This document shows positions 6,266-58,898 of a stretch of DNA of 64,000 bases, piece by piece. Below the pieces are notes generated by a model. That model was not told where the DNA came from. It saw nothing but the letters and a program-made list of their open reading frames with translations, and searched no databases. Positions within the stretch are counted from its first letter, which is position 1. Every line of letters begins with the position of its first letter. A program made the translations under genes and the position numbers. This stretch comes from Octopus vulgaris (taxonomy: Eukaryota): NCBI GenBank assembly GCA_951406725.2, contig OX597824.1, positions 34,410,001 to 34,474,000 of the forward strand, read 5' to 3'.

Positions 6266-7262
6266 TCGTTCCATGCTTGTTTTTACGTTTTCGTTCTCAT
6301 TGAGTTCTGCGTCTATTTGTGGTGTCCTGTACTCACGTATATATATTTATATATGCATGTATATATACATGTAGATGTAGGTACGTACATATATGTATGT
6401 ATGTATGCATATATTTTATTTATTACACTATTGTATGACTGAGCGCCTTCGCGTCGATTCGATTCGATTCGTTCCGTTTCGTTTCGTTTCTTCTTCTTCT
6501 CCCAGTACAGTTTTTATATATAATTATGACATGAAACCCTATACCTCTTTGCTTAACCTTCCCTTCTCTCCCTTTCTCTCTCTCTCACTCCTCCTCATCT
6601 CTCTCACAGCCGGCCACATACTTCCTTTTTGCATGCGGCCTTCTAACTGTAAACACACGGTTTTCTTGTGCTCCTTGAATCTCTCCTCGTCTAGGCAAAA
6701 AAGGCCCTCTTTGGTTGTTTTCTTGTGTGTTTTTATTTCTTGTATTGTATTTTTTTGTAATTGTATTTTTATTTTGTATTTATTTTGTATTTTATTTAGT
6801 ATTTTATTTTGTAATTTTATTTGTATCGTTTTTACATCCTGTTTGTGTCACATTTTGTTCTTTCCTTGTTTTTACCCCTCTGCGAAGTAATTTCCTTTAA
6901 TTTCTTCGCAGGAAGGGCTAGTTCGACGAGTCGTGTTCTGTCCTCACCTTCGAAACACACTGGAGTTGAACTAGTGACAGCTGATGAAGGGGATTTTTCC
7001 TTGTGTAGTTTGTCTAGTACTCTGTTTTTTCTTTGTAAAAAAGAGGTTCGTTCCATGCTTGTTTTTACGTTTTCGTTCTCATTGAGTTCTGCGTCTATTT
7101 GTGGTGTCCTGTACTCACGTATATATACATGTAGATGTAGGTACGTACATATATGTATGTATGTATGCATATATTTTATTTATTACACTATTGTATGACT
7201 GAGTGCCTTCGCGTCAATTCGATTCGTTCCGTTTCGTTTCTTCTTCTCCCAGTACAGTTTTT
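6266..7262 (+). mobile_element. Non-coding element with about 220-250 bp terminal direct repeats inserted in (TA)n (Penelope-like pseudo-LTR or partial tandem structure)
   Basis: 6266-6520 is repeated at 7047-7262; (TA)n on both sides; core contains CCTTCGAAAC and CTGATGAAGG fragments. Confidence 0.65.
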
Positions 7263-8062: not shown

Positions 8063-10594
8063 GATGTTCCGCAAAGACCGCATTAATCGCCATGGAGGGG
8101 GTGTGATGATTTATGTTCGATCAAATCTATCGGCAATTCCCTGTGATGATTTGAACCAATCTCAGCAGGAAGTATTTTTCTGCAATATACACATGACCAT
8201 GTCAACACTTCTGCTCGGAGTCGTTTACCGTCCCCCAATTATCGTCAAGACGCACAGCTTTTTGATATTCTCAGAACTGCTGCCATGAAAACAGCCGCGT
8301 ATGTGTATATTGCAGGCGACTTCAATTTCCCTGAGATTGACTGGGAGGCCTTCCGTTGGCCGCAAAGTGCAGACGATTTCCTTGAACTGGTGCTGAATTC
8401 AAATTGGTCCCAAGTTGTTACCTCCCCAAACTGGCTCGAATTTTATGCCTCTGGAGATGTGGACACTATACTCCAGAACATTCTGAGTTCAATATGAGCG
8501 GCATGTGCAGCATCAGTACCACGCAAGCACAAAACCCCCCCCAATAGTGCAATTTAGGAGACAGCATGCAGTCCAACTTGCCAGGAAAGAACACCGTAAT
8601 GCTGAACAGGAATACAAATTGCACAAATCAGAGAGCAACAGGAAAAAGCGCAATAGGTCAGCCAACCACCTCAAGCAGGGGACAGAAAAGGCAGTGCTTG
8701 AATTTGAACAACGCATTGCTGCTAACCCTGACAGCAAAGTGTTCTGGAAGTATGTGCACTCAAAGCAGAGACCCCACTCTCCAGTTGGTCCCCTTCGCAA
8801 TCCCCACACAGGACAGATTACTGGCAATCCTGAAGAATGTGCAGAAATCATTGCTGGATGCTATGCCGGCATCTTTACTGTCGAAGGCCAAAATGTTCCA
8901 TCTTCATCACCACTGACATCAGACTCTATATCTACTATGCAATTTACACCAGCATTGCTACAACGCCACCTTAAGAATAAACACAACTATGCCTCTCCTG
9001 GTCTCGATGGTGTTACATACCTACTTCTCAAACGCGGTGGGTACTTTCTTCTAAGCCAACTTTCTCTATTCTTCCAATTCTGTCTTGACAATGGTGTTAC
9101 TCCAGAACAGTGGAAGACTGCCAGTGTTATCCCTCTGTTCAAAAAAGGCGACCGCACATCGCCTGTCAACTATCACCCCATTAGTCTTACTAGCTGCATC
9201 ACCAAACTGATGGAATCCTGTATCAGAGAAACCCTCTGGAACTTCTGAAAGTCGGATTTATTCCTAACTCCAGCTGCTGTAATCAACTCATCGAGTTTCT
9301 TGAGGACGTTACCCAAATCACTGATCGCGGATCCTGGGTGGATGTTGTTTACCTGGACTTTGCTAAGGCTTTTAACTCTGTGCCACACAAAAGACTTATG
9401 GTGAAGCTTTCTGCGTTGGGCGTAAGAGACAAACTCTATAACTGGTTGAAGTCCTTTATTTTCGGTCGAAAAGAGGTTGTCACAGTTCTAGGACAGCACT
9501 CTTCGCCCTATGAGATGACATCTGGTGTACCTCAGGGATGTGTTCTTGGCCCCCTTTTATTTGTTGCATATGTTAATGACATAGATGCCAACTTAAAGAA
9601 TGCCACAGTGCTGAAATATGGAGATGACATCAAGCTATACCTCAAAATAAAGAGGTCAGATCCTGTACACTATAGATCTCTATTGCAAGCAGACCTGGAC
9701 ACAATGCAGCAGTGGATCATGGACTGGCAACTCAAGCTGGCTGTGGACAAATGTACCACCATGCATTTTGGGAGGAGAAACCCAGCGTTCACCTACTCCC
9801 TCCACAACACTAGTCTCAAAAAGTCTTCATGTGAAAGTGACTTGGGTGTTATCGACAGTGATTTGCGTTGGACAAAACACATCACTAAAATTGTCAAGAA
9901 GGCTGAGGTTGTCTTGGCATCACTCACCAAATCCTATGTGAGCCGCTCTCCGACTATCTATCTGCAGCTTTATACAGCTATGGTAAGACCTCACCTGGAA
10001 TTTGCATCACCGGTCTGGAACCCCTATCTTGCCCAGGATATCAATCGTCTGGAACCCCTATCTTGCCCAGGATATCAATCGTCTGGAAGCCGTTCAGCGA
10101 CGTGCAACTAAAAGAATACCCTCCATCAGGCATTTGCCATATCCTGAACGCCTTACTTCCCTGAGCATGGACACATTGAAACTCTGACGTCTGGCAGCTG
10201 ACTTGGCAGACACCCATAAAATTATCAACCATCGTACAAACAATAATTCTGAGCACCTTTTCAAACTCCACCCATCTAACACCCGTGGACATATTTACAA
10301 AGTCAGAAAACAGCATAGCTCCCATGACTTCAGGAAACATTTTTTCATGCTGAGAGTTGCTGAAGCATGGAACAAACTGCCGGCATCGGTTGTTTGTTGT
10401 CGGAGCACTGCATCCTTCAAAACTTCCATGCTTTCTGAGATTCGCCAACACTACACCTGATTTTCTCCCCTCCATACACATACAAGCATGTATCTGACTC
10501 ATGCATTGTTCGCTTTCCAGACATTTGTACATTACTGCATATACTCTGACAAGTTGTGGTGCACCTGAGCACTGTATACAATAATTTCATTATT
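8063..10594 (+). mobile_element. CR1/L2-like LINE, 5'-truncated and pseudogenised (APE endonuclease and RT remnants), inserted into a family B SINE
   Basis: Motifs RKDR..HGGGV, VVYRPP, AGDFNFP.IDW, SPGLDG, YLDFAKAFNSVPH, SGVPQGCVLGPLLF, Y(G)DD, RPHLEFASPVWNP, RKHFF..RV..AWN.LP; stops, frameshifts and deletions; SINE halves at about 7955-8062 and 10596-10620. Confidence 0.92.
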
Positions 10595-18149: not shown

Positions 18150-21100
18150 CTATGAGGATTGCTACTAGTCACTAGATCAACCTTTGACCTCTCATTCTCC
18201 ACCAGCTTCGGTATGCTCGAGAGAAGCTACCTCACTCCACCAAGGGTTCCTAGCAGAATTAGTCCTGCCAACCCCACCACTCCTACAACTTTTGACCTTC
18301 CCCCCACACCACCTGACATCCGTTCTAGTCCACCATTGCAACCAATACTGCTTGCCCTGCCTCCTCTCTTAATTCACTTCCTCGACTGAGTTCTTATGCT
18401 GGCCCTCTACTGTCGGCCAATGCTAGCTCACCACCTGACTGTGCTCTCTGTGCTTGCGCTAGCCAATACCTATAAACAATTGTCATCTATGCCACCAAAA
18501 TTACCACAGAAGTTATGTCTGCATCACCAAGGCTCAAGCCGAAAGGCTTCCATACAGGACCTGCAGTCAGTGCCACTTCAACTCCAATGCTCTCCGTGGA
18601 GATGCCCCACACTGCAGCAACCAGTTCGCTACTGAGAACTTTGCTGCAATCTTCCAGGGTTTATCCAAATCGAAGCTCATTAATCAGATCCTTAATGAAG
18701 CCCAGAATAGCTTTGCTCATGCGCTCTTCAGCTTGTTGAAAAACGTATGTTTATTCAACAGTACGTCCGACTGACAGAAACTGTTTCTGTTCCCTTTCAT
18801 CTCTCTCCACATGCACGATCTGAAATCAGGCTGCCTTACATCCTCTCTCAAGCAACAATTCCAGTTATTTGAGTCTGCCCCGACCACTTCTCACCTCAAT
18901 TTAACATCAAGCACGGTTCCTACCAACAGGCAACATCAGTGTGCAGTCAATGCCAAATTCAGCAAATTTCACATAAAAGGGGCTATCCGTCTCCTCTCTT
19001 CTCTATCCTCCCTCTGTGTAACTCTGAGTCTCTTAAATGTCTGAAAGAGCAGCACCCAACAGCATCCCCAGATAATCAGCTAAACTGGCCTGATCCCCCA
19101 GAATACTTGAGACTGGTCTTCACTTCTGATAACATTAGAAAGGCGATTTCATCCTATTCTGCTGGTTCAGGTGCAGGAATTGACAGCCTTCAGCTTCAAC
19201 ACCTCAAGGATATTTCCTTATTGGCCGGTGATGCTGGACTCGAGCTCTTGGACAATTTGACTCAGTTTGTGATCCAGTTCTTTTCAGTGAACATTCTCCC
19301 CTATATCCGCCCACTGTTCTTCAGTGCAAAATTATTCAGGATCACTAAACCATATGGATACCTGCACCTCATTTTAGTTGACTGCACCCTTCACTGTCTC
19401 ACCGCAAAGGTGTGTTTACAATCTGTCTCTAACCTATTGGAGGAGGAATTTTCCTCCACCCAGCTAGGAGTGGGCACCAAATTTGGATGTGAGGCTGCTG
19501 CCCATGCTACCAGAGCCTATGCCAACTTGCCCTCCTTGTCTCTCAAGGTCATTCTCAAACTTAACCTCAACTATGCATTCAACTCTGTCAGCCATGATGC
19601 TGTCTTCAGCTCAGCAAGAGAAAGGTTCCCACAACTCTACCGCTCTGCATGGCAGGCTTATCAAGAGCCCTCCTACCTCTCTTTTGGTGACCAAATCATC
19701 ACCTCTGCCTTAGGAGTCTGACAGGGTGACCCACTTGGGGCTACTCTGTTTGCACTGGGCATTGATGACATCACTAAGATGGGGGTCAAGCTAGACCGGT
19801 ATCTCAATGACGCTTGTTTGGTAGGACCTCCAGACAGGGTTCTCGCCATTGCAGACATGATGGTTGGGGAGCTTGGTCATCAGGGTCTCCAAGTAAACAG
19901 CTTCAAATGCGAGCTCTGGATCTTCAGCCACCTAGCTTCTCAACATCAACAAACAATAGACCTATTTGCAGCATCCTTCCCTTCCATTGTAGTCCTTCCC
20001 TCATCGGCTTGGTGCTCCTTTGGAGCCCCAATTACTGACCTTGCCTTTGAGTCCATCTTCCAGTCAAAGGTGGCTGCCCTTGAGCAGTTGCTGAAGAATA
20101 TTGAAGCAATCGAACCCCATCAAGGTTTCTTCATACTTAGAAATTACCTTTCGATCTCTAAGCTTCTATATTTGCTCAGAGTCAGTTCCTCTCACCGATT
20201 CCTATATTGTCTCTGACTCTTTGACAATCAAATCTTCAAGAGACTCCAATGCCTGGTCAATGTCAGACTCTCTCCAACATCAGACGATCAGTCTGCATTG
20301 TCCAAGCAAGTTGCGGGTCTTGGTCTTTGTAATTGTTTGTCCCTCTCTCTTCCCTGCTTCCTTTCCTCCATTCACGCCTGCTCCACCCTGGTGAGCAACA
20401 TCCTCTCCTCTCCAACATGGACCAGTTCCAACAGGGAGTTGGATGAAGCTCTCCAACACTGGAGTGAATTGGGCTTGTCTGCTCCTGAGAAGGTGGAGGG
20501 CTGTCTGAGTCAGAGAGCTTGGGACAACATAATTCCGAAGGCCACTTTCAACTCCTTCTTCATCCAGTCGGACCAGTTTTCAAGGTGCCGCTTACTGTCT
20601 GCTAGTGCCAAATACTCAGGTGACTGGATTGATGCCATCCTTGTTGCTAATGTTGGTGGCCTACCCAGCTTGAACGAACTTCGTGTCTCCATTGCCCTCA
20701 GAGTGGGAGCTGACATATGCATGGGTTTGAGCTGTTGTTGTGGCAGGCTCCTCGACTCCACGAGCCTCCAGGGTTTTTCTTGCCACCTGAATGCTGGTCA
20801 CATCATGTGTAATACAGAGTTAAACCTTATGCTCAAGAGGAGCTTGGCCCAGGCAAACATCCCCTCCATCTTGGAACCATCTGGGTTGTCCAGATGTGGT
20901 GGGAAAAGACCTAACAGCTTCACCATGTGCCCCTAGTCAAGAGGCAGATGCCTTGTCTGGGACATCACAGTTAGCGACTCCTTTGCTTCTTCTCACATCC
21001 TGGATGCTGCAGCCAAGGCGAGATTCACAGCTTCAGTGACCAAGCGGAACAAAATTCTAAAGTACTGCAATCTGTCGGCCAACTACATTTTCCATCCTGT

Positions 21101-24800: not shown

Positions 24801-25144
24801 GCTTGTGTCTATAATCACTGATGCCAAGTATTAACTAAAGGAGAATTAATGCTATAGGGCATGCTACCTATGCACTGCTTTTAAATTAAGAGGTACATTA
24901 TAGGTTTTAAAACCCAAGATCAATAAAGTGCTACTTTCTAAAATATTTGAAGGTACGGGTGACACTATGTACGCATGATACCCAAAGGTCTAATCGATTA
25001 TTAATCAGGTTGCCATTATCCTTATGCTTAAAAATTTCATATGTTTCCATAGAGCAAAGCTCACACCTATATCTGCTATTTCTATAAGGCTGAGCTTTTT
25101 TTATTATTTCCCACTAGAGGCTAACCTCAATTACGCTTTCTAAA

Positions 25145-25436
25145 TACATAGTGAAAGTAATTGAAATTGAAAGCATATAATAGCGAAAGTATTATCTAAC
25201 ATTACAATAGAAATGCTATTGTTTCACTTTTGACACGTAATACCGAAGCAGTGTAAGAGATAAGAGATTGCTCTGGGTTCATATAAGGCAACAAGTTGAA
25301 AATTTTTGCCCATGACACTACATGGACCCTAAGTAAGGCAAGTGTAAAATTTGAACAAAATCAGTTGAGTAGTTCTCAAGTTTTAGGGATGCACACATAC
25401 AGACACACACACACACACATTCTCAGTTTTATATAT
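25145..25436 (+). mobile_element. Non-autonomous Helitron/Helentron-like repeat; inverted diverged copy at 26900-27152
   Basis: aaatttgaacaaaatcagttgagtagttctcaagttttag..acagacacac..ttttatatat; reverse-complement homolog at 26900-27152; similar end at 23390-23478. Confidence 0.5.
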
Positions 25437-25443
25437 ATGTATG

Positions 25444-25497
<54 letters not shown>

Positions 25498-25520
25498 TAT
25501 ATATATATATATTTATGTGT

Positions 25521-25560
<40 letters not shown>

Positions 25561-25572
25561 ATTTGTATATAA

Positions 25573-25619
<47 letters not shown>

Positions 25620-25826
25620 AATGCCAAAAAATGAAGAACAAACACACACAAACCAACAATGTGAGGATGTGGTACATGTAAAGCATTAGCAAATGCTCAG
25701 GGAAGGAAAGAAAAGTGGTTTTACATTTCGAGCGAAGCTCTGCTTCAGGAATAGAGGAAAGTCCAATAGAAAAGGAAGACAGAGGAAAAAACAACTGCCG
25801 ATTCACATGAGGTTACATTTTGAAAA

Positions 25827-25858
<32 letters not shown>

Positions 25859-25947
25859 TTATATATGTATATATATATGCATATATATATATATATATAT
25901 ATATAAGAATGTATATATATATGTATGCATGTATATATAATTAATTA

Positions 25948-26003
<56 letters not shown>

Positions 26004-26232
26004 TATATAGATATATGTATATATATGTATATGTATATATCTATATAGGTATGTATGTATGTATATCTATGTATATATACATATGTATGTATATATATAT
26101 ATATGTGTGTGTGTGTGTGCATATATATATACATATGTATATATACATATGTATGTATATATATGTGTATATATATATATGTATGTATATATATATATAT
26201 GTTTGTATATATGTATATATGTGTGTGTGTGT

Positions 26233-26852
26233 GTGAAAAAGTGCCACACCCTAGCGGTTGAGGGAACCTGTGGAAGAGGCAGACCCAGGAAAACCTGGGA
26301 CGAGGTGGTGAAGCACGACCTTCGAACTTTAGGTCTCAGTGAGGAAATGACTAGAGACCGAGACCTCTGGAAGTATGCTGTGCATGAGAAGACCCGGCAG
26401 GACAAGTGAGACCATAACCCGTGGCCTTCTACACGGGATGTAGCCAGTCCACTTATGCATACCTTCCCTTCTTGGGACTCAAAACTCTACTTGTGAAGAC
26501 CTGTTGAGGCAAGTGAGAATCAGGATCGAAATGGAAATTGCAGCTGAGATACCAGTGCCGGTGGCACGTAAGAGAACCATCCAAACGTGGCCATTGCCAG
26601 TGCCGCCCCGATGCCTCGTGCCGTGGCACGTAAAAAGCACCATCCGTTCGCGGCCATTTGCCAGACTCGTCTGGCACCTGTGCCGGTGTCACGTAAAAAG
26701 CACCCACTACACTCATGGAGTGGTTGGCGTTAGGAAGGGCATCCAGCTGTAGAAACATTGCCAGATCAGACTGGGCCTGATGCAGCCTTCTGGCTTCCCA
26801 GACCCCAGTTGAACCGTCCAACCCATGCTAGCATGGAAAGCAGATACTAAAC

Positions 26853-26885
<33 letters not shown>
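26233..26885 (+). mobile_element. RTE LINE 3' end (ORF C-terminus, 3' UTR, (GAT)n tail)
   Basis: [33 protein letters not shown]...DRDLWK is a typical RTE C-terminus; (GAT)n tail. Confidence 0.88.
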
Positions 26886-27149
26886 ATATATATATATATA
26901 TATAAAATTAAGAATGTGTGTCTGTCTGTATGTGTGCACCACTAAAACTTGAGAACTACCCAACTGATTTCATTCAATTCAGTGTCACGGGCCCAAAATA
27001 TGTTCAGCTTCTTGCCTAATTCGAGCCCAGAGCAATCTCCTATGTCTTATACTATTTCAGCATTACATCAAATGTGAAATAATATCACCTTCATTGTAAT
27101 GTAAGATAATACTCCCAGTTTTAATGTTTCTCTATTAATACTTTCACTT

Positions 27150-27206
<57 letters not shown>

Positions 27207-27236
27207 GCGAGAATGAAGCAACAAGAATGGATAGGT

Positions 27237-27327
27237 TTTTAGTACAATCGTTTCATACAAGGACAGGTTTTATTAAAAGTTGCAAAAATTACAGCATATA
27301 AACGTGTCCCGTACTCATCAGCTAAAA
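27237..27327 (-). ncRNA. Type I hammerhead ribozyme motif (mirror copy)
   Basis: Reverse complement of 28299-28389. Confidence 0.78.
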
Positions 27328-28298
27328 TACATGTGAGTTCTCTAGACATCCTAGTGGTTGAGGCTATACTCATGAAGTAATGTAGATAATTAAGTAACAT
27401 AAACAGATTTCAAAAGTTCATTAAAGTTCTTTAAAGATGATGTACAGTCTTATCACAGAATTTTTAAAAAGTCTTAATAGCATCACAGAGAAGGTGACCT
27501 AATTCATAGTGCACATATGAATTTCCAGAGATATGATGAGGGATTACATACTCACAGAAGACAAATTTATCCATTGTTAATTACAACGAGGTGGGTTTCA
27601 ATTCCTGCTTATTAGCATTACAGAGAGGGTTAATTAATCCTTTGTATAGATGCACAATTTCCAATGGTGTAGGTGTAAATTTCAAGGAATTTCATATTCA
27701 CAGGCGATAAATTTATCAATGGTTGAACACAATGAGGTAGGTATCAATTCTTGCTATATGATTAGGTATTTGCCACATTAATCACATTACTGCTATTTAC
27801 AAGAGGTTATAGCTACAGCCTCTTGTAAATAGCAGTAATGTGATTAATGTGGCAAATACCTAATCATATAGCAAGAATTGATACCTACCTCATTGTGTTC
27901 AACCATTGATAAATTTATCGCCTGTGAATATGAAATTCCTTGGAAATTTACACCTACACCATTGGAAATTGTGCATCTATACAAAGGATTAATTAACCCT
28001 CTCTGTAATGCTAATAAGCAGGAATTGAAACCCACCTCGTTGTCATTAACAATGGATAAATTTGTCTTCTGTGAGTATGTAATCCCTCATCATATCTCTG
28101 GAAATTCATATGTGCACTATGAATTAGGTCACCTTCTCTGTGATGCTATTAAGACTTTTTTAAAATTCTGTGATAAGACTGTACATCATCTTTAAAGAAC
28201 TTTAATAAACTTTTGAAATCTGTTTATGTTACTTAATTATCTACATTACTTCATGAGTATAGCCTCAACCACTAGGATGTCTAGAGAACTCACATGTA

Positions 28299-28389
28299 TT
28301 TTAGCTGATGAGTACGGGACACGTTTATATGCTGTAATTTTTGCAACTTTTAATAAAACCTGTCCTTGTATGAAACGATTGTACTAAAA
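28299..28389 (+). ncRNA. Type I hammerhead ribozyme motif
   Basis: Stem I TTTTAG/CTAAAA; CTGATGA core; stem II GTACGGGACA/TGTCCTTGTAT; GAAA; minimal stem III C-GATT-G; GUA cleavage triplet at 28381-28383. Confidence 0.8.
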
Positions 28390-28810
28390 ACCTATCCATT
28401 CTTGTTGCTTCATTCTCGCTTATAATCACCCCACATTACTGTATTGTTAAATCAGTATAGTTTTTTTTGGTGCATCTAAGTTAGGTACCATATTCAAGTA
28501 AATTCATTTAAATTAACTTGAATCTTTATTGCTTTTTGTATATATATATATATATATATTTAAATAATGAGGGAGATAAATTAATATTAATTTTAATATC
28601 AATTTAAAACCAGTAGTCCAGCATACAAAAAATCTGAGAAGTCAGAGAAAATTCTAATATATATATATATAACTTTCATTTCTTATTTCACAATGTATAT
28701 ATATGGTTGTATATATATATATATAGACACACACACACATATATACATATATATATATGTATATATTTATATCTTGTGTATATATATACATATATATATA
28801 TATATATGTA

Positions 28811-28855
<45 letters not shown>

Positions 28856-29059
28856 ATATATATATATTTATGTACGTATATGTATGCATGTATATGTACA
28901 TATCTATATATATGCATACATATATATGTACATATATATATAAGTATATATATTTATATATGAAATATTTATGTGTATATATATAGATGTGTGTGTGTAT
29001 ATATATGTATGTATATTTATGTATATATATATGTATGTATATATGTGTATATATATATA

Positions 29060-29090
<31 letters not shown>

Positions 29091-29814
29091 GTATATAAGT
29101 GTGTATGTATGTATATGTATATAATAATATAAATAAGCTATGCAGATGATACGAAAGTCTCGCAGAAAATAAAAAAACTGGGAGACAACTGATATAAAAA
29201 GACTGCCTCCAAGGGACACCTGTCTCTGTAGGCATACTGCCTTCACTCTGTCAATGGCAAACCTCCATCTTTGATTCGTGAATCTGACAACTGCTTACCC
29301 CAACCACCTACTATCAGTAAGTTACAAACTCATTTTCTCGTGCTCAAATTCTTCATTGGTTTCTATTATATTATTACACATCTCTTCTCCAACAAGAGAC
29401 TTTTACTGGTTTATTTCATTATTGTATTTTTCAAATATTAGGTCCAGGTAAAAGGTCGTGCACCATGTTAAAATAGTGGGTTTTTTTTATATTTTAGTGG
29501 TGTGTGTGTTCATTCAGTTCAATTATATTAACAGTGCACAAACTTTTTCCTCAACCTAGTAATACATTTATTGTCATTGCTTAAAATCTCATTTGTTCCT
29601 TCTTCTTGTCCTTGCCGTAATACCCTTACCTATTTTCACCTTTATCATCATTATCACTCACATTATACAAGTTATTAGCCATAACCAACTGGTATTATTA
29701 TAATTGTAATATGAGAGACGAGGCTTTCGAATACAATAAAAGGTCTGCCACTAAAAAAATTGAATTATTCAGACATTAAATTTTAATTTTATTCATAGGA
29801 AAACATTTCAATGA

Positions 29815-32800
29815 CCATGAAGAAAAGTGGCTGCTGAATGCCGAATTTTCCAAGAAACTTGGACATTAGATTACTTCTTCATTGGATACAACGTGAACTG
29901 ATTTGTTTCATATGTTTAGAAAGTATTGCTGTGAATAAGGTAGCAGATATTAGGCGACACAAGATGTGCCATTATAAAGATTTTAGGACATTTACTGAAC
30001 AAGCAAGGAAAGATGAAGTTGAGTGGTTGAAGTTTAGGTTTGGAAAACAAATGTCATTTTTTTAAAAACAGAAATTGTCAGCTATGAAGTCTCAAAGCAT
30101 ATTGCTGAAAAGATGAAACCTTTTACAGATGGCGATCTTTTTAAAGACTGCTTATTGGCAGTGTTGGATATTGTTTGTACAGAAAAAAGTTTTTATTTGA
30201 AATTATCAGCCTGTCTCCAAGGATGATCACATGGAGGGTTGAAAAAATGTCAGCAGATGTTAAAAATCAATTAATCAACACCTGCAGTGAATTCCAATAT
30301 TTTCAATTGCAGTCAATGAGAGTACAGACTTAAGTGACACTGCACAACTTGCTGTCTTTGTGTGAGGAGTGACTTCAACTTTTCAGATCTTTGAAGAACT
30401 TATTCAGTTAATTCCTCTGAAGGAAACTGTAACCAGAGCAGACATCTTTGAAGCTTTGTTGAAAATGATATCAGAAATGAAGTTTGATTTTTGGCATCAC
30501 AACTGATGGTAGTCAAGCTATGGTAGGACAGAAAAAAAGGCTTTGTTGTACTACTGCAAGAACATATAGAAAGCTTTGGAATCACACATAAACTTGTTAA
30601 AATTCTGTTATATCGCACGTTCGGATGACCACTACTCAACTCTTTGACATCTAGACTTCTCCCTCTATATCTACATATTGGGCTAGCCTACTTCATCATC
30701 TGGGGGCGCCGACACAACACCTCCCCCTTTTGAGTTTTTTAAACCCGAATTTATCAATTTTATTTCCTTGGTGAGAAACTGGCATATCTTTTCCTCTTAG
30801 CATTAATTTCCATCATTTCTGTAGGTTTTCTCTTCCTGTTCGACCTACACATCAGTTCTGCTTTTGCTTGTGGTTCTGGGACCTTGAACAAATCATACCA
30901 TAAATCCATTGGTTCTTCTCGCCTCTCTTGGTTTTTGGTATATCTTTTTTTTTAATTGGTTTAAATGCCTTCTGTGTTCATATTTTGGTCCTTTTACCAT
31001 GTACATCACATTACTCAGATGTCCAGTTACACTTCCTTGTCCCCAGTCCTGTTTCCCGTTACTATATATTTTAAAATACACTTTGTCACCTGTGTTAAAA
31101 AATTTTCGTTTTTCTTCCTGAATTTTCTATTTTCTGTTTCCTGCTCGGTAACTATTTGTCAAAAATAGAATGAATTTTTCTGGAAAACATCAAATCTGCA
31201 GGTGACCTACCTGACTCTGCATTTGGATTCGGTGTTATTCTATACACCTGCAAAAACTTTGTCGTATTTGCATCTTCAAGGATTTCCCGTCTGGTCTTCC
31301 TTAAGGCTCTCTTGAATGTGTCAACAAATCTTTCCGCTAACCCATTTGACCTTGGATGGTATGGTGGAGTTAACACATGCTTCATCTGAACCGACTTACA
31401 GAATCTTTTGAACTTCTTTGCCATGAATTGTGTACCATTATCTGACACGATCATATCTGGCACTCCATAATGAGCAAACAGTTCTTCCAAGAAGTCAATA
31501 GTCACACTTGTGGTTGGCCTTGAACATTTTCACACTTCAGGCCATTTGGAATAGCCATCCACCACAATGATATAATGAGAGCCATTTATTGGTCCTGCAA
31601 AATCCACATGTAGTCTAGACCATGCTGAATCCGTTTTTGGCCATGGTTGAATCTGCACTGGGGGCGCCTTTGCTGCCATAGTGCATCCCCTACACTGTTT
31701 TACCAGTCTCTCAATTTGCTTGTCCATATTCGCCCAATAAATGTAACTTCTCATAAGGCTCTTCATCCGGACAATTCCCAGATGTCCTACATGAAAGTCT
31801 TTTAATACTGTTTTGCAGTGCTTCAGGTATCATCACTCTTTGTGCATATAGTTATACCTCATCACATACTGCCTATCTTACTGCATGTTGCCGTATTTAT
31901 TATCGATACGTCTGAGATGGTATCTAAATGCATTTTGGTCTGAAACCCATTTATTTCTACCAACACAAATTTTCAGTTTTGTCTGGTATAATTTACTTTT
32001 GTTGAGTAGACTTTCTTCTGTTTTACCATTTTCTTTGACCGGCATTTTGTCTGTATATGTCCAATTTTACCACACTTAAAACAGGTTTTATCTTTAAAGG
32101 AGCAATCTTTCTTCAAATGTCGATCACTGCAACCATAGCACCGTTTTGAATTAAAATTTTTCCTTCTTTCTGTACTTTCTTTACACATTTGTACATTATT
32201 ATTCTTGTCTTCTATCTTTCTTGTATCATCTCGAAGGTTATTACAACTTCAAGGTAAAATTCAGCTCATAAATGAAATGTATAACCATATTGTTGCCTTT
32301 GAAGAAAAAGCGACAGTTGTGGGAATATCAACCGTAAAATAAAAATTATGTGCATTTTGTATCATTTCAAAGAATGAAACCATAGGATTCAGAGCTATTT
32401 GTGAATACAATCCAGGATTTGAGAAATGAATTTGCATCACATTTTGCTGACTTTCATCTGCATGCAAATCAGTTTAAATTGTTTGTTGCACCATTTGATG
32501 TGGAGGTGGAGACAGTACCAGAATGTTTCCAAATGGAATTGATTGATATGCAGTGTGACGACTTACTGAGATCTAAATTTCATTCTAAAGATGTTTCATT
32601 GATTGACTTCTATGCAAAATATATTTTTCCAAGTGGGAAGTATACCAACTTAGTGAATCATGCAAAAAGGATGGCATCTTTGTTTGGAAGCACCTATCAG
32701 CATGAGCAATTATTTTCCAAATTGAAGCAAACTAAGAACAATTTCAGAACAAGATTAACTGATAATCATCTTGATAATATCTTGATCTTGGCATCAACAA

Positions 32801-35151: not shown

Positions 35152-36489
35152 CCTATTTCTTTACTACCCCCAAGGCGCTAAACACAGAGAGGACAAACAA
35201 GGACAGACAAACGGATTAAGTCGATTACATCGACTCCTGTGCGTAACTGGTACTTATTTAATCGACTCCGAAAGGATGAAAGGCAAAGTCGACCTCGGCG
35301 GAATTTGAACTCAGAATGTAGCGTCAGACGAAATACCTATTTCTTTACTACCCACAAGGGGCTAAACACAGAGAGGACAAACAAGGACAGACAAACGGAT
35401 TAAGTCGATTACATCGACTCCAGTGCGTAACTGGTACTTATTTAATCGACCCCGAAAGGATGAACAGCAAAGTCGACCGTTGCGGAATTTGAACTCAGAA
35501 CGTAATGGCAGACGAAATACCTATTTCTTTACTACCCACAAGGGGCTAAACACAGAGAGGACAAACAAGGACAGAGAAACGGATTAAGTCGATTATATCG
35601 ACCCCAGTGCGTAACTGGTACTTATTTAATCGACCCCGAAAGGATGAAAGGCAAAGTCGACCTTGGTAGAATTTGAACTCAGAACGTAGAGGCAGACGAA
35701 ATACCTATTTCTTTACTACCTACAAGGGGCTAAACACAGAGAGGACAAACAAGGACAGACAAACGGATTAAGTCGATTACATCGACTCCAGTGCGTAACT
35801 GGTACTTATTTAATCGACTCCGAAAGGATGAAAGGCAAAGTCGACCTTGGCGGAATTTGAACTCAGAACGTAGCGTCAGACGAAATACCTATTTCTTTAC
35901 TACCTACAAGGGGCTAAACACAGAGGGGACAAACAAGGACAGACAAACGGATTAAGTCGATTACATCGACTCCAGTGCGTAACTGGTACTTATTTAATTG
36001 ACTCCGAAAGGATGAACAGCAAAGTCGACCGTTGCGGAATTTGAACTCAGAACGTAGCATCAGACGAAATACCTATTTCTTTACTACCCACAAGGGGCTA
36101 AACATAGAGAGGACAAACAAGGACAGACAAACGGATTAAGTCGATTACATCGACCCCAGTGCGTAACTGGTACTTATTTAATCGACCCCGAAAGGATGAA
36201 AGGCAAAGTCGACCTCGGTAGAATTTGAACTCAGAACGTAATGGCAGACGAAATACCTATTTCTTTACTACCTACAAGGGGCTAAACACAGAGAGGACAA
36301 ACAAGGACAGAGAAACGGATTAAGTCGATTACATCGACCCCAGTGCTTAACTGGTACTTAATTTTTTGACCCCGAAAGGATGAACAGCAAAGTCGACCTC
36401 GGCGGAATTTGAACTCAGAACGTAACGGCAGACAAAATACGGCTATGCATTTCGCCCGGCGTGCTAATGTTTCTGCCAGCTTGCCGCCT
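35152..36489 (-). repeat. Tandem array of seven 184-bp family B SINE units with a single tRNA head
   Basis: Unit starts at 35152, 35336, 35520, 35704, 35888, 36072, 36256; head (GGCGGCAAGCTGGCAGAAAC on the minus strand) only at 36440-36489. Confidence 0.95.
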
Positions 36490-41239: not shown

Positions 41240-42440
41240 CTACATCAAATTCAGAAATAGCCAGCTGGCAAAATGAAACCGGACACGGGCAAAGACAGGA
41301 AGACAGTCATCTGCTTTGTTGATTTTGCTGCTGCATTTGACTCCGTCGATTGTGACACCCTCTGGTAGATCATGCAGGCAGATGGTATCCCACCTAAACT
41401 TCTCAATCTTACCAAAGCTTATTAACTGCTCAACAAGATCCCGCATACACATGTACAGTGAAGTGTCGGAACCCTTCAAAATATAGTCTGGCGTTCGGCA
41501 AGGATATGTTCTTTTGCCAACTCTTTTCAATTACGCCATCGACTGGATCACCACAAATGCATTAAGGGAGTTCCCCAGTGTCACTGTTGGTCACAACTTT
41601 TCCATCAAGGATCTAGATTACACAGATGACATTGCGATACTTGGCGAAACATTTGCTGATGTCCAGTTTATTATCATTGAGCTCCGGCATGTTGCATCGC
41701 AGATTGGTATGAAAGTCAATGCCTCGAAGACCAAAACCCTCACAGCTGGCTTCGCCCTACCAGACAAAACACCCATTGTCCTCAATGGTGATATTCTTGA
41801 AGAGGTTGAGAGTTTCAAATACCTCGGTGCCATCATTACAGCTACAGGTCAAGGTGAGGCTGACATTAAAACACGAATCGACCTCGCTCGCCAAGCCTTC
41901 AACCGATTCAATGCATGACTCTGGTCAAGATCTGAGATCCGACGCACCACCAAAGTACGGATCTACCAAGCGCTAGTGTGAATGATTCTCCTTTACGACA
42001 GTGAGTCATGGCCAATGAGGGTGGAAGATATTAAGCAACTAGAATCCTTCAATCACCTGTCTACGCCGCATCCTTCATGTCGAATGGCATCATTTTGTCT
42101 CCAACAATTTGGTGCGACACCAGTGCAAAATCACTTCCCTCCGACAAGTCATCCTAACAAGACGTCTGCGTTGGCTGGGTCATGCCCTCCGTCGTCAACC
42201 AGAATTCATCTACGAAGCAATTGCCCCGGTTCCCCTTCAGGGTTGGCGAAAGCGATGTGGTGGACAATGAAAAACCTGGCTGATCTGGAACCCAACCTAG
42301 GCCCCCATACCTACGGCATTTGCCACTGGAATAAGGAGTGGTTGGAGATCGTTAGCCTCAAATCGCCAGGTCTGGTCGGCGTTTGTGAGATGCAGTATTG
42401 AGGATGAATGAAGCCAGCTAAACCCACCCCGGGTGAATGC
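41240..42440 (+). mobile_element. RTE-clade LINE fragment (second family), RT pseudogene
   Basis: FVDFAAAFDSVD, GVRQG.VL.PTLFNYAIDWI, DLDYTDDI, EEVESFKYLG, LYDSESWP, RRLRWLGH. Confidence 0.88.
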
Positions 42441-44851: not shown

Positions 44852-45787
44852 TTAAGAATTATCTGACCATCGTCTGTAAATTGAATGCTGAAAGAAAATA
44901 TTCACCAAAAACATTTGAGTTACTCTTCCAATTAATATATTATCAGGCAACCAATTTTTTATCCATTCTTGCTGAGCAATTAAGCCATTTCCGATAAAAA
45001 GATAAAATTGTCTAATCATAAGTTGCGTAACAACAAAAACTGTGCCCAATTTACAAACAAGAGTTGGTTGTAAACCTGAGCAACTTAAAATGGACAGACT
45101 ACTTTCTTCTAATAAATCATCATCTTCGTTGTCTTCGTTTTCAAAAAACATTGAAACAGTTTTCTGATAATTGAAGCAATTGACAGAAAAGAGCCGTAGG
45201 AAAATAGTGCCAAGAAAAATAGGACTTAAAAATCTGCCAATCAAATTTAGAAAGTTGGATAGTTTCTCAGAGTTTAGTTGCCAAACACTGCTCACAAATT
45301 CTATCAAAGTGTGTTTAGAATCAAAACAGGATAAAATAGGTAATTCTATATTTTCATTTAAGTTGTTCTCTGTTTTCATGAGTAAAAGTATAAGCATGGT
45401 CAACATGAAACTAAAAGCAGTTTCCCACATCTGTCCAGTTCCTAATGACCACATGAGAACATGGTTGAAGACTGTTAGAAACAATATCACATAAAGAAGC
45501 CAGGTGTTGCTGTTAAAAGTTATTAACACAATATAACAGGATAAACCATAGTTTAGAATAGAAAATATAGCAAATATAATTTGATATATGTACAGGTTAT
45601 CCTCATCATCCTCTTCAGCCAAATCATTTATGTAATTGGAAAGTTTTGTTGCTAGGAGAAGAATAAAGAGAACTTCTTGGAATAACATGATAGGTTCAAA
45701 TAACTGCAGCACAAAGCCATAGACATATACCACTGAATAAGGGATGAGTTTCACAGGGAGAGCCCACAGCAGAATAAATAATCCAAC
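44852..45787 (-). CDS. Exon 2 (311 codons plus stop) of a multi-pass membrane protein, SERINC/ICE2-like
   Basis: 936-nt open frame in AT-rich DNA; acceptor ttttcttatttag|GTT in frame with exon 1; several hydrophobic segments; IMLFQEVLFILL...EED..YQII...LNYGLS resembles the SERINC segment FILIQL.LL.DF...EE..WY..L...LNY.LS (family assignment is inference). Confidence 0.85.
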   Translation of the reverse strand, partial: VGLFILLWALPVKLIPYSVVYVYGFVLQLFEPIMLFQEVLFILLLATKLSNYINDLAEEDDEDNLYIYQIIFAIFSILNYGLSCYIVLITFNSNTWLLYVILFLTVFNHVLMWSLGTGQMWETAFSFMLTMLILLLMKTENNLNENIELPILSCFDSKHTLIEFVSSVWQLNSEKLSNFLNLIGRFLSPIFLGTIFLRLFSVNCFNYQKTVSMFFENEDNEDDDLLEESSLSILSCSGLQPTLVCKLGTVFVVTQLMIRQFYLFIGNGLIAQQEWIKNWLPDNILIGRVTQMFLVNIFFQHSIYRRWSDNS

Positions 45788-57461: not shown

Positions 57462-58898
57462 GGCGAAAGTAAAGAATACGAGGGACGTTCGATAAGTAAT
57501 GCCTCTGACCCACTTGTAGTTGTTTGATCTAGCTGAAATTTTGCATGTGCAATCAATTATATCTCTATAGAGTAAGTGGCAAATTACAGCACTGAATTAA
57601 TTGTGGTTTCTGATTTACAGGTGTTTGAACCGAGTCAAGTGTGAAATGGAGCCTGTTGAGTGTCGAGCAGTGATCCGGTTTTTGTATTTGAAAGGACGCA
57701 CACCACGGGAGACTTTTGATGAAATGAAAGTAACTTATGGTGATGATGCCCCATCATATGACCTTGTAAAACGCTGGTATCGTGAATTCAAACATGGTCA
57801 GAACTCTGTGGAAACAGCTCCCAGATCTGGTCGCCTCCTTCTGCCATTGATGAGGCATCTGTCCATCAAGTTGAGGCTGCCATTTTGGAAGATCGACGCA
57901 TAACTATTCGCCAAATAGCCCTTGAGGTCAAGATTAGTACCGGGTCTTTGGAAACTATCATTCATGACCATTTGCATATGCAAAAGGTATCTGCCAGATG
58001 GATTCCCAGGTTGCTCACGCCTTTCCAGAAGCAAGAACGCGTCGAGTGCTCGAGGGTGAATTTGGAGATGTGCCAAGAAGATGAGTCAAAATTTTTTAAA
58101 AGACTGATTACACAGGATGAAACCTGGGTCCATCACGATGATCCAGAGACCAAAGCCCAGTCAATGCAGTGGAAGCACCGTGACTCACCCCCTCCAAAGA
58201 AGGCAAGGGTGCAGCCCTCCGCTGGCAAGGTCATGCTCAGTCTTCTGGGACCAGGACGGAGTAGTGATGACAGATTTCCTGGCAAAGGGTACCACAATTG
58301 CAGGAGCCTATTATGCTTCACTTTTGAGGAAATTAAGAGAAGTTATCAAAATCAAGAGGCAGGGCAAGATCAGCAAAGGTATCCTCCTCCTGCAGGACAA
58401 CGCTCCGGTCCACAACTTGCTTGTCGCCAGATCAGAAGCACAGGCGTATGGGTATGAACTCCTCCCCATCCCCCCTACTTTCCTGACCTTGCACCCTCTG
58501 ATTTTCACCTCTTCCCAATCATGAAGTTGTTTTTGAAAGGAAAGCATTTCCCAGATGATGCAGCCTTGATTTCTGAAGTCACGTTGAGGTTGGAGGACCA
58601 AGCTGGGTTCTTCTACAAAAACGGTCTCCAGAGCTGCATCAAACGATGGGAGAAATGCGTAACTCTAAGTGGTTCCTATGTAGAAAAAGACTAATAACTG
58701 TGCCAAGTTTCGTTGCTCTACTACTATGGGAAGTGGGTCAGGGGCATTACTTATTGAACGCCCCTCGTATGTACACTCAGTGTTTCGGGCTAGGGTTAGT
58801 GTTAGGATTAGGAATTAGGGCTAGGGTTTAGGGTTTGGATTAGGGTTAGAGTTTTGTTACGCCGAAAACTGGTGGTGTACGTATTCTTTACCTCCGCC
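57462..58898. mobile_element. MITE family 3 (about 146 bp, almost entirely TIRs plus a TTAGGG tract) carrying a nested mariner
   Basis: Perfect 8-bp TSD ACTTACTG (57454-57461 and 58899-58906); TIR GGCG[A/G]A[A/G]GTAAAGAATA[T/C]GTACAC; degenerate (TTAGGG)n at about 58787-58850. Confidence 0.88.
57479..58767 (+). mobile_element. Full-length mariner (DD34D) with frameshifted transposase (57646-58694)
   Basis: 1289 bp, TA TSD, TIR CGAGGG[A/G]CGTTC[G/A]ATAAGTAATGCC; WIPRLL, DETW, QDNAP.H, PDLAPSDF motifs spread over several frames. Confidence 0.95.

Follow-up and report, generated by a model that had tools for sequence, protein, structure and literature searches.

A young palindrome with two hammerhead motifs in Octopus vulgaris as a probable two-armed insertion of a Hydra-clade Penelope-like element

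The closest described relatives of the locus treated here are the EN+ Penelope-like elements (PLEs) of the Hydra clade, which were described by Craig et al. 2021 with diagnostics in section 11 of the paper (PMC8557442). As far as the accessible text of that paper goes, inverted 5'-truncated copies and a tail of 30–40 bp are typical of PLEs, and the entry for Penelope-13_HM records an inverted copy truncated at its 5' end, with hammerheads on the two strands. A self-complementary stem III is given as the mark of dimeric hammerheads in the available part of another study (PMC4209133). Biochemical data come from an anole PLE, for which the available sections of PMC11167929 report that both target strands were cut and extended in vitro, that two internal start sites of reverse transcription bound the tail, and that hammerhead cleavage was not required, sense RNA being used in these reactions.

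The window, that is the whole stretch of 64,000 nucleotides from Octopus vulgaris which was analysed, contains a palindrome that is confirmed as real and that is young and explained. As the original prediction had stated, it is inserted in a (TA)n microsatellite, the left portion of which is (TA)27 at 27152–27205 and the right portion about (TA)10 at 28539–28559. The repeat adjoins both outer ends and masks any target-site duplication. When the left half was reverse-complemented and aligned to the right half, the axis fell at 27812/27813, with G27207 pairing to C28419. The left arm (27207–27806, minus strand) and its mirror in the right arm (27819–28419) are nearly identical, as had been noticed: outside the centre three substitutions and one indel separate them, and the centre adds two mismatches. 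Complementarity reaches 98% over 491 nt in a single ungapped block, so the palindrome did not arise by chance. The arms had also been described as lacking a spacer, which is nearly right: exact mirror symmetry ends at 27806/27819, leaving a 12-nt centre (27807–27818) in which two bases do not match and the other 10 nt are element sequence that only the right arm has. This inversion junction, which occurs once in the genome, is centred on the TAGCTA of the element, and it appears seamless because the element itself has this palindrome there. The right arm (27809–28538, plus strand) is longer than its mirror, by 119 nt (28420 to G28538) where about 120 bp had been estimated. This tail runs from an inner to an outer start site, discussed below, and measures 118 nt in the reference copy. 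The left arm is tail-less and begins at the inner site, preceded by a C at 27206 (plus strand) for which the element has no template; the same base is found in 52 of 81 inner-site junctions of the family. In agreement with the original prediction no reading frame for a reverse transcriptase (RT) or a GIY-YIG endonuclease was found within the palindromic stretch. Tandem units were likewise absent at the palindrome.

The right flank of the palindrome is another repeat. A second young family that inserts in TA contributes 100 bp at 28560–28659, and 27 of the 40 scored matches to this piece are identical across all 101 nt. Elsewhere (L197, L202) this piece is a one-sided tail of about 97 nt beside inverted-arm palindromes, so the anatomy of that family is like that of the Hydra family, with the tail alone present in the window.

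A fold-back artefact of library preparation or assembly would also produce such a structure, and no contig listed from four public runs spans the axis, which is not evidence of absence. The flanks are not mirrored, however, the arms differ at four places outside the centre, and the asymmetry coincides with the fixed inner site of the family. Contigs of two public runs (seven from X10, one from X3) moreover join (TA)n behind this inner site, and an artefact has only a very slight probability.

Each arm carries an outward-facing type I hammerhead motif, as had been recognised from the letters. On the plus strand (28299–28389) stem I is formed by 28299–28304 and 28384–28389, followed by CUGAUGA at 28305–28311, GAAA at 28372–28375 and GUA at 28381–28383, with a predicted cut after 28383; the left copy (27237–27327, minus strand) mirrors it. 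The layout comprises a 6-bp stem I, a stem II of about 60 nt and a self-complementary stem III octamer (28375–28382), and with such a stem II the motif is not the minimal hammerhead that had been assumed. Nor was the anticipated match to a hammerhead covariance model obtained, as an Rfam scan of 25000–31000 at E≤5 returned only matches of microRNA models to the TA repeats and the hairpin centre and no hammerhead family. The ribozyme call thus rests on motif and covariation. A constrained fold gives the full type I shape at −10.5 kcal/mol, whereas the unconstrained monomer prefers another fold at −12.5. For covariation eight motifs from the window and from sister families were picked from 20 loci, and both partners have changed in 11 of 20 pairs, in eight sequences which are related and with the structure drawn on the window copy; none of 500 shuffles reached 11 and slid controls stayed at four or below. 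All eight motifs keep the core, and all have a self-complementary stem III octamer, of which five different words occur. Conservation of core and stem pairing, named beforehand as a mark of a true hammerhead, was thus observed. The hammerhead is predicted to cleave as a dimer. Two further hammerhead motifs, at L178 (about 6440–6510, minus strand) and at L176 (6729–6819, plus strand), belong to other, unrelated-looking TA-inserting families; both adjoin Hydra copies and one has a shorter stem II.

From sequence comparison the right arm is almost certainly the last ~730 nt of a 4663-bp autonomous PLE of the Hydra clade. When the genome was searched with this arm, 1691 candidates were obtained, of which 40 were scored, and all 40 were 97–100% identical over about 728 nt, which bears out the young age that had been proposed. 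Twelve further matches are inverted arms, eleven of them ending where the inverted arm of the window ends, and at least 26 of the 40 scored copies continue upstream past the axis of the window. Copies were traced up to 10 kb at 20 loci and the full unit was reconstructed from them. It consists of 4663 bp with a 5' pLTR, an ORF of 953 amino acids and a 1747-nt 3' UTR. Of this unit the window contains just the final ~730 nt of the 3' UTR, in two copies, the tail-less arm being inverted 3' UTR/pLTR sequence. A partial-tandem pLTR architecture was seen at four loci (L032, L034, L036 and L048).

The ORF has the motifs RWK at 37, DKT at 124, YRDD at 355 and VIY/YIG at 833/848, and the linker and end motifs CxCX5C (CKCRIKSKC, 814), CxxC (CQLC, 911) and CxH (CVH, 941). 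A single cysteine stands between VIY and YIG, and the CCHH motif, which has two cysteines there, is absent. This is the motif set of the Hydra clade, to which the element appears to belong, published Hydra proteins having been compared by eye. Isolated parts of the ORF matched the Pfam families RVT_1 (E=0.002) and GIY-YIG (E=0.006), both below the curated cut-off, while the whole 953-aa protein gave no Pfam match and a PDB sequence search no meaningful one. Stop-free frames of 970–984 codons are found in 7 of the 12 best protein matches. Named relatives in the databases are a fragment from Octopus sinensis (69%) and proteins from Argonauta (41–43%). The ORF carries two asparagine-rich stretches, and the size excess of the unit is due to these linkers and to the 3' UTR. 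The link to Penelope elements suggested in the original prediction is thereby borne out, and so is linkage of the arm to an RT, with RT and GIY-YIG motifs in one frame of the unit.

The copy number is reflected in 806 exact genome matches to a 21-nt word of the hammerhead core. The junction of inner site and (TA)n has 330 exact matches, with 8 double listings among the first 100 rows, and the junction of pLTR and ORF has 15; the reversed control gave 0 in all three cases. On contig C1 38 of 55 cores stand in outward-facing pairs, while inward-facing pairs number 0. At least four sister Hydra families with 58–90% RT identity were met at L173–L188 on several contigs. Their frames range from 842 to about 1090 codons with growing asparagine content, and all have hammerheads with a long stem II and two positions of the 3' end. 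From L109 (G000:C2:37617038-37624037) onward a head-to-head pair spans about 10.9 kb; both of its copies are full-length and have a 5' pLTR of their own.

The 25-mer across the junction of the window occurs a single time in the 2.8 Gb genome, so the palindrome of the window does not spread as a unit. This bears on the reading originally put forward, that of a non-autonomous ribozyme retroelement, taken here as a retrozyme-like one which spreads as a palindromic unit. Coding sequence is indeed absent from the stretch, and animal retrozymes derive from pLTRs according to the available part of a preprint (bioRxiv 10.64898/2026.07.22.740005), yet no two of 64 junctions called in the family are alike, tandem units of 150–400 nt are absent, and arms range from 144 nt to full length. 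The reading is largely refuted and retains next to no probability; the palindrome is instead a 5'-truncated copy of an autonomous element. Variable axes among the copies, which the original prediction had proposed to look for, are what this record displays.

Two start sites define the outer ends of the family; they lie 118 nt apart, 30 and 149 nt behind the hammerhead. The inner end takes the form TATATA-C-GCGAG in 52 of 81 junctions, TATATA-CGAG in about 15 and the fully templated TATA-AGCGAG in 9. Its sharpness is in part by design, as the search pattern fixes it within a few bases; the same inner site appeared free of this constraint in the genome search with the right arm and in loose ends in runs X10 and X3. 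Of the 62 tailed arms 61 have CTCGC-TTATAA as the template at the inner site, and none carries the extra C, so that an origin of this base from the template was rejected. The outer end stops at the G before AATATA in 40 of 61 junctions and runs into AATATA in 6. Microhomology at the start site was used in 9 of 81 inner and 6 of 61 outer junctions. The major inner form could arise if reverse transcription started at the G, added CG and realigned two bases back. A fuller version of this scheme, in which two sites are primed, the inner cDNA is peeled away by the outer one and folds back to form the palindrome, synthesis starts with dC opposite G and slips frequently by two bases (CG-CGAG) in a telomerase-like realignment, and a tail of about 100 nt is general for the Hydra clade, is tentative and has somewhat less than an even chance of being right.

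The loci directly display the identity of the element, two fixed ends, a one-sided tail, alleles shared between arms, junctions in hairpin register and a new junction at every locus. The explanation put forward as a whole, a 5'-truncated two-armed insertion of an autonomous element made by two primers and a snap-back, is reasonably probable. The GIY-YIG domain would nick both strands of the (TA)n target, and both nicked strands would prime reverse transcription on one element RNA at the sites 118 nt apart. The cDNA primed at the outer site might then displace the inner-primed cDNA from the RNA; to our knowledge the RT of PLEs has no RNase H. The freed end of the inner-primed cDNA could fold back on itself and give rise to the mirror half, which was likely built during this single insertion. 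The sense strand made by fold-back may then anneal to the other cDNA, and repair would close the gap. Where no fold-back took place the two cDNA ends would be joined. Parallels are the twin priming of L1 and the fillers left by polymerase theta. Taken by itself, the step of two-site priming on one RNA followed by snap-back is slightly favoured.

The evidence comes from the first 80 distinct inner-site loci by position on contigs C1–C4, with 7 kb taken at each. The pattern by which they were found requires the junction of inner site and (TA), and thus excludes other arm ends by design. One locus had no alignable arm, 14 of the remaining 79 had no adjacent tailed arm, and 65 were two-armed. The ends of the two arms lie at most 20 nt apart in 36 of these 65, compared with a mean of 3.1 and a maximum of 11 in 5000 rounds of permutation; palindromes with almost no spacer are thus the most frequent form in the sample. 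Base by base 64 of the 65 junctions could be called: the loop lies in the tail-less arm in 23, in the tailed arm in 4, and is centred in 8, while 29 are far, not hairpin-like, with the tailed arm longer in 19 and the tail-less arm longer in 10, where it reaches 3.6 kb. The bias of 23:4 towards the tail-less arm is significant (p=3e-4 for the 27 oriented near junctions) and would be explained by displacement, which would free the inner cDNA to fold back. The far class would represent the joining of two cDNA ends without fold-back. The copy in the window, whose own junction has no clean microhomology, is one of the minority in which the tailed arm holds the loop.

These figures bear on the fold-back envisaged in the original prediction, in which one outer-primed cDNA folds back and copies itself and an endonuclease then resolves the product at the inner TTATAA; the text available of PMC8557442 proposes such an endonuclease-mediated resolution. 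The inner site abuts TTATAA, which is TA-like, the loop of the window does lie in the tailed arm, and the tailed arm is the longer one in the 19 far junctions mentioned. This route predicts loops in the tailed arm, however, which were seen in 4 of 27 cases, and never a longer tail-less arm. A fold-back step thus stands, but the simple fold-back of a single cDNA does not explain the family, because the tail-less arm is longer in 10 of 29 far junctions and bears the loop in 23 of 27 oriented ones. Long copies that end at the inner site also speak against it, and this route would leave unexplained why 52 of 81 inner junctions have the extra C. At L186, L191 and L192 it is the inverted arm that bears the tail, and the long copy does not extend beyond the inner site. 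Resolution of a single folded cDNA is accordingly quite improbable.

A reading without any fold-back is that two cDNAs run off the same 5' end of the RNA and are joined by microhomology-mediated end joining of the host. It fits the 29 of 64 junctions that link unrelated positions, mostly with filler which is often locally templated, and a shared RNA end would likewise yield arms of nearly equal length. The 29 junctions count against snap-back, and the filler found in 12 of 23 junctions with a tail-less loop could be host end joining as well. Fillers frequently copy short stretches of the neighbouring sequence, in some cases several times over. A symmetric join, on the other hand, predicts loops in either arm, against the 23 and 4 observed. 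Four centred junctions contain filler (L105, L124, L127 and L139), and by eye it is mirrored by 3–9 nt in every one of them, which needs copying of a filler-bearing strand. Hairpin-register microhomology of at least 2 nt (2–6 nt) was present in 9 of 11 insertion-free junctions with a tail-less loop, where 20% is expected by chance (p=2e-5). End joining of two run-off cDNAs is unlikely on balance. At L111, L156 and L082 the fillers consist of 2–4 direct repeats of a 9–16-nt element stretch, and the sequence suggests repeated realignment of a growing end.

The arms within each locus were compared over 17,587 bases and differ on average by 0.24%. For frequent alleles, present in at least 4 loci, 29 cases match between the two arms of a locus and 4 do not. 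Private variants are common to both arms of a locus in 21 cases and differ in 27, and one shared variant lies in the window at 27995. Near and far junctions do not differ in their shares of shared private variants (13 of 30 and 8 of 18, p=1.0). This equality, which end joining would produce too, indicates a common template and not the copying of one arm from the other.

Self-priming on an antisense template was proposed for palindromes of Adineta Penelope elements in a model built on head-to-head palindromic junctions (PMC3846280), and palindromic loci could yield antisense RNA. Here both outer ends meet (TA)n at two fixed positions of the sense RNA and the junction is different at every locus, which argue against it, as does the use of sense RNA with the anole PLE in the accessible text of PMC11167929. 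This origin is very improbable for the present family.

The hammerhead itself may be a passenger of the pLTR in this process. The whole motif is spanned by 64 of 79 tail-less and 52 of 65 tailed arms. A sharp pile-up of arm ends was not found at the predicted cut (1 of 79 and 3 of 65 arms), nor 8–12 nt upstream of the core (1 of 79 and 0 of 65). There is a mild excess of arm ends 139–170 nt from the end (8 compared with 2–5 per bin), which is not sharp. That most arms were copied from uncut RNA is the best explanation.

A read-through transcript of the locus is predicted to fold in such a way that the other arm pairs with the whole hammerhead motif, as the original prediction had supposed; the public runs listed as holding the stretch included no RNA run. 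Octopods are known for heavy A-to-I editing, and the family seeds the genome with a few hundred near-perfect inverted repeats of 0.1–5 kb, which would be dsRNA substrates if transcribed. An ADAR footprint was looked for in retroposed copies, where 8 A>G and 8 T>C private changes show no excess of A>G. Differences of the A>G type in contigs of public runs were examined as possible editing and rejected, since they occur in DNA runs as well, bar one single-contig case with a depth below 5.

Elsewhere in the window a tandem array of seven copies of a 184-bp unit, 93% alike, lies at 35152–36440. The unit is a dispersed SINE-like repeat with further copies at 1629, 15035 and 34972. A stop-free frame of 311 codons at 44852–45787 (minus strand) resembles a membrane protein, has no Pfam match and is a possible host exon. 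A degenerate (TTAGGG)n stretch is found within the contig at 58787–58853. At 8487–10111, 18873–20936, 41487–42401 and 57786–58524 lie decayed fragments of LINE-type RTs and one fragment of a mariner-like transposase, labelled by reading of translations.

Compared with known systems, the locus itself is what an element of an already known kind ordinarily leaves behind. As far as the available text of PMC8557442 describes it, the Hydra clade (for example Penelope-13_HM and Hydra-1_Obim) has the same protein motifs, a type I hammerhead near the 3' end and a (TA)n target. The unit found here is larger, with 4663 bp against typically, though not strictly, less than 3 kb, its ORF has 953 amino acids where relatives in the databases mostly have about 700–730, its stem II of about 60 nt contrasts with stems of 4–7 bp and short loops, and its tail of 118 nt with the 30–40 bp given for PLEs. 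It is distinct from Hydra-1_Obim, another Octopus family, which in the record available has 2507 bp and a different hammerhead (compared by eye). The consensus ends published for Hydra families, as far as the tables of PMC8557442 are accessible, follow stem I at a distance of 26–43 nt in 10 of 24 families and of 81–149 nt in 11 of 24. They bracket the 30- and 149-nt sites of the present element, so that long tails may be general for the clade. Insertions of other PLEs, in the available parts of PMC11167929 and PMC3846280, have the same head-to-head inversion, palindromic junction and one-sided tail delimited by two fixed sites, and hammerhead cleavage is apparently dispensable there as here. 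Both start sites of the present family abut a TATA-like template, whereas those of PAc are called non-homologous in the accessible text of PMC11167929. Penelope ORFs of Adineta vaga, from another clade and phylum, also contain frame-keeping asparagine-rich segments between RT and EN (PMC3846280). Non-LTR retrozymes and the minimal hammerheads of PLEs are likewise of type I with a palindromic helix III and a predicted dimer, according to what is available of PMC4209133 and bioRxiv 2026.07.22.740005; unlike non-LTR retrozymes the present element is not tandem and not a self-propagating unit, and its hammerhead is not minimal. Literature searches returned no description of this family, of the junction polarity or of twin priming in PLEs, and older Penelope literature may hold such models. 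As inverted 5'-truncated copies with a one-sided tail are already textbook knowledge, the Hydra clade included, what the family adds is a large junction record. The accessible text of PMC8557442 and PMC11167929 names the way in which PLEs form inverted repeats and tails as open, and some 300 very young two-ended insertions, together with copies whose frame is open, allow one model to be put to counts in silico and to tests in vitro.
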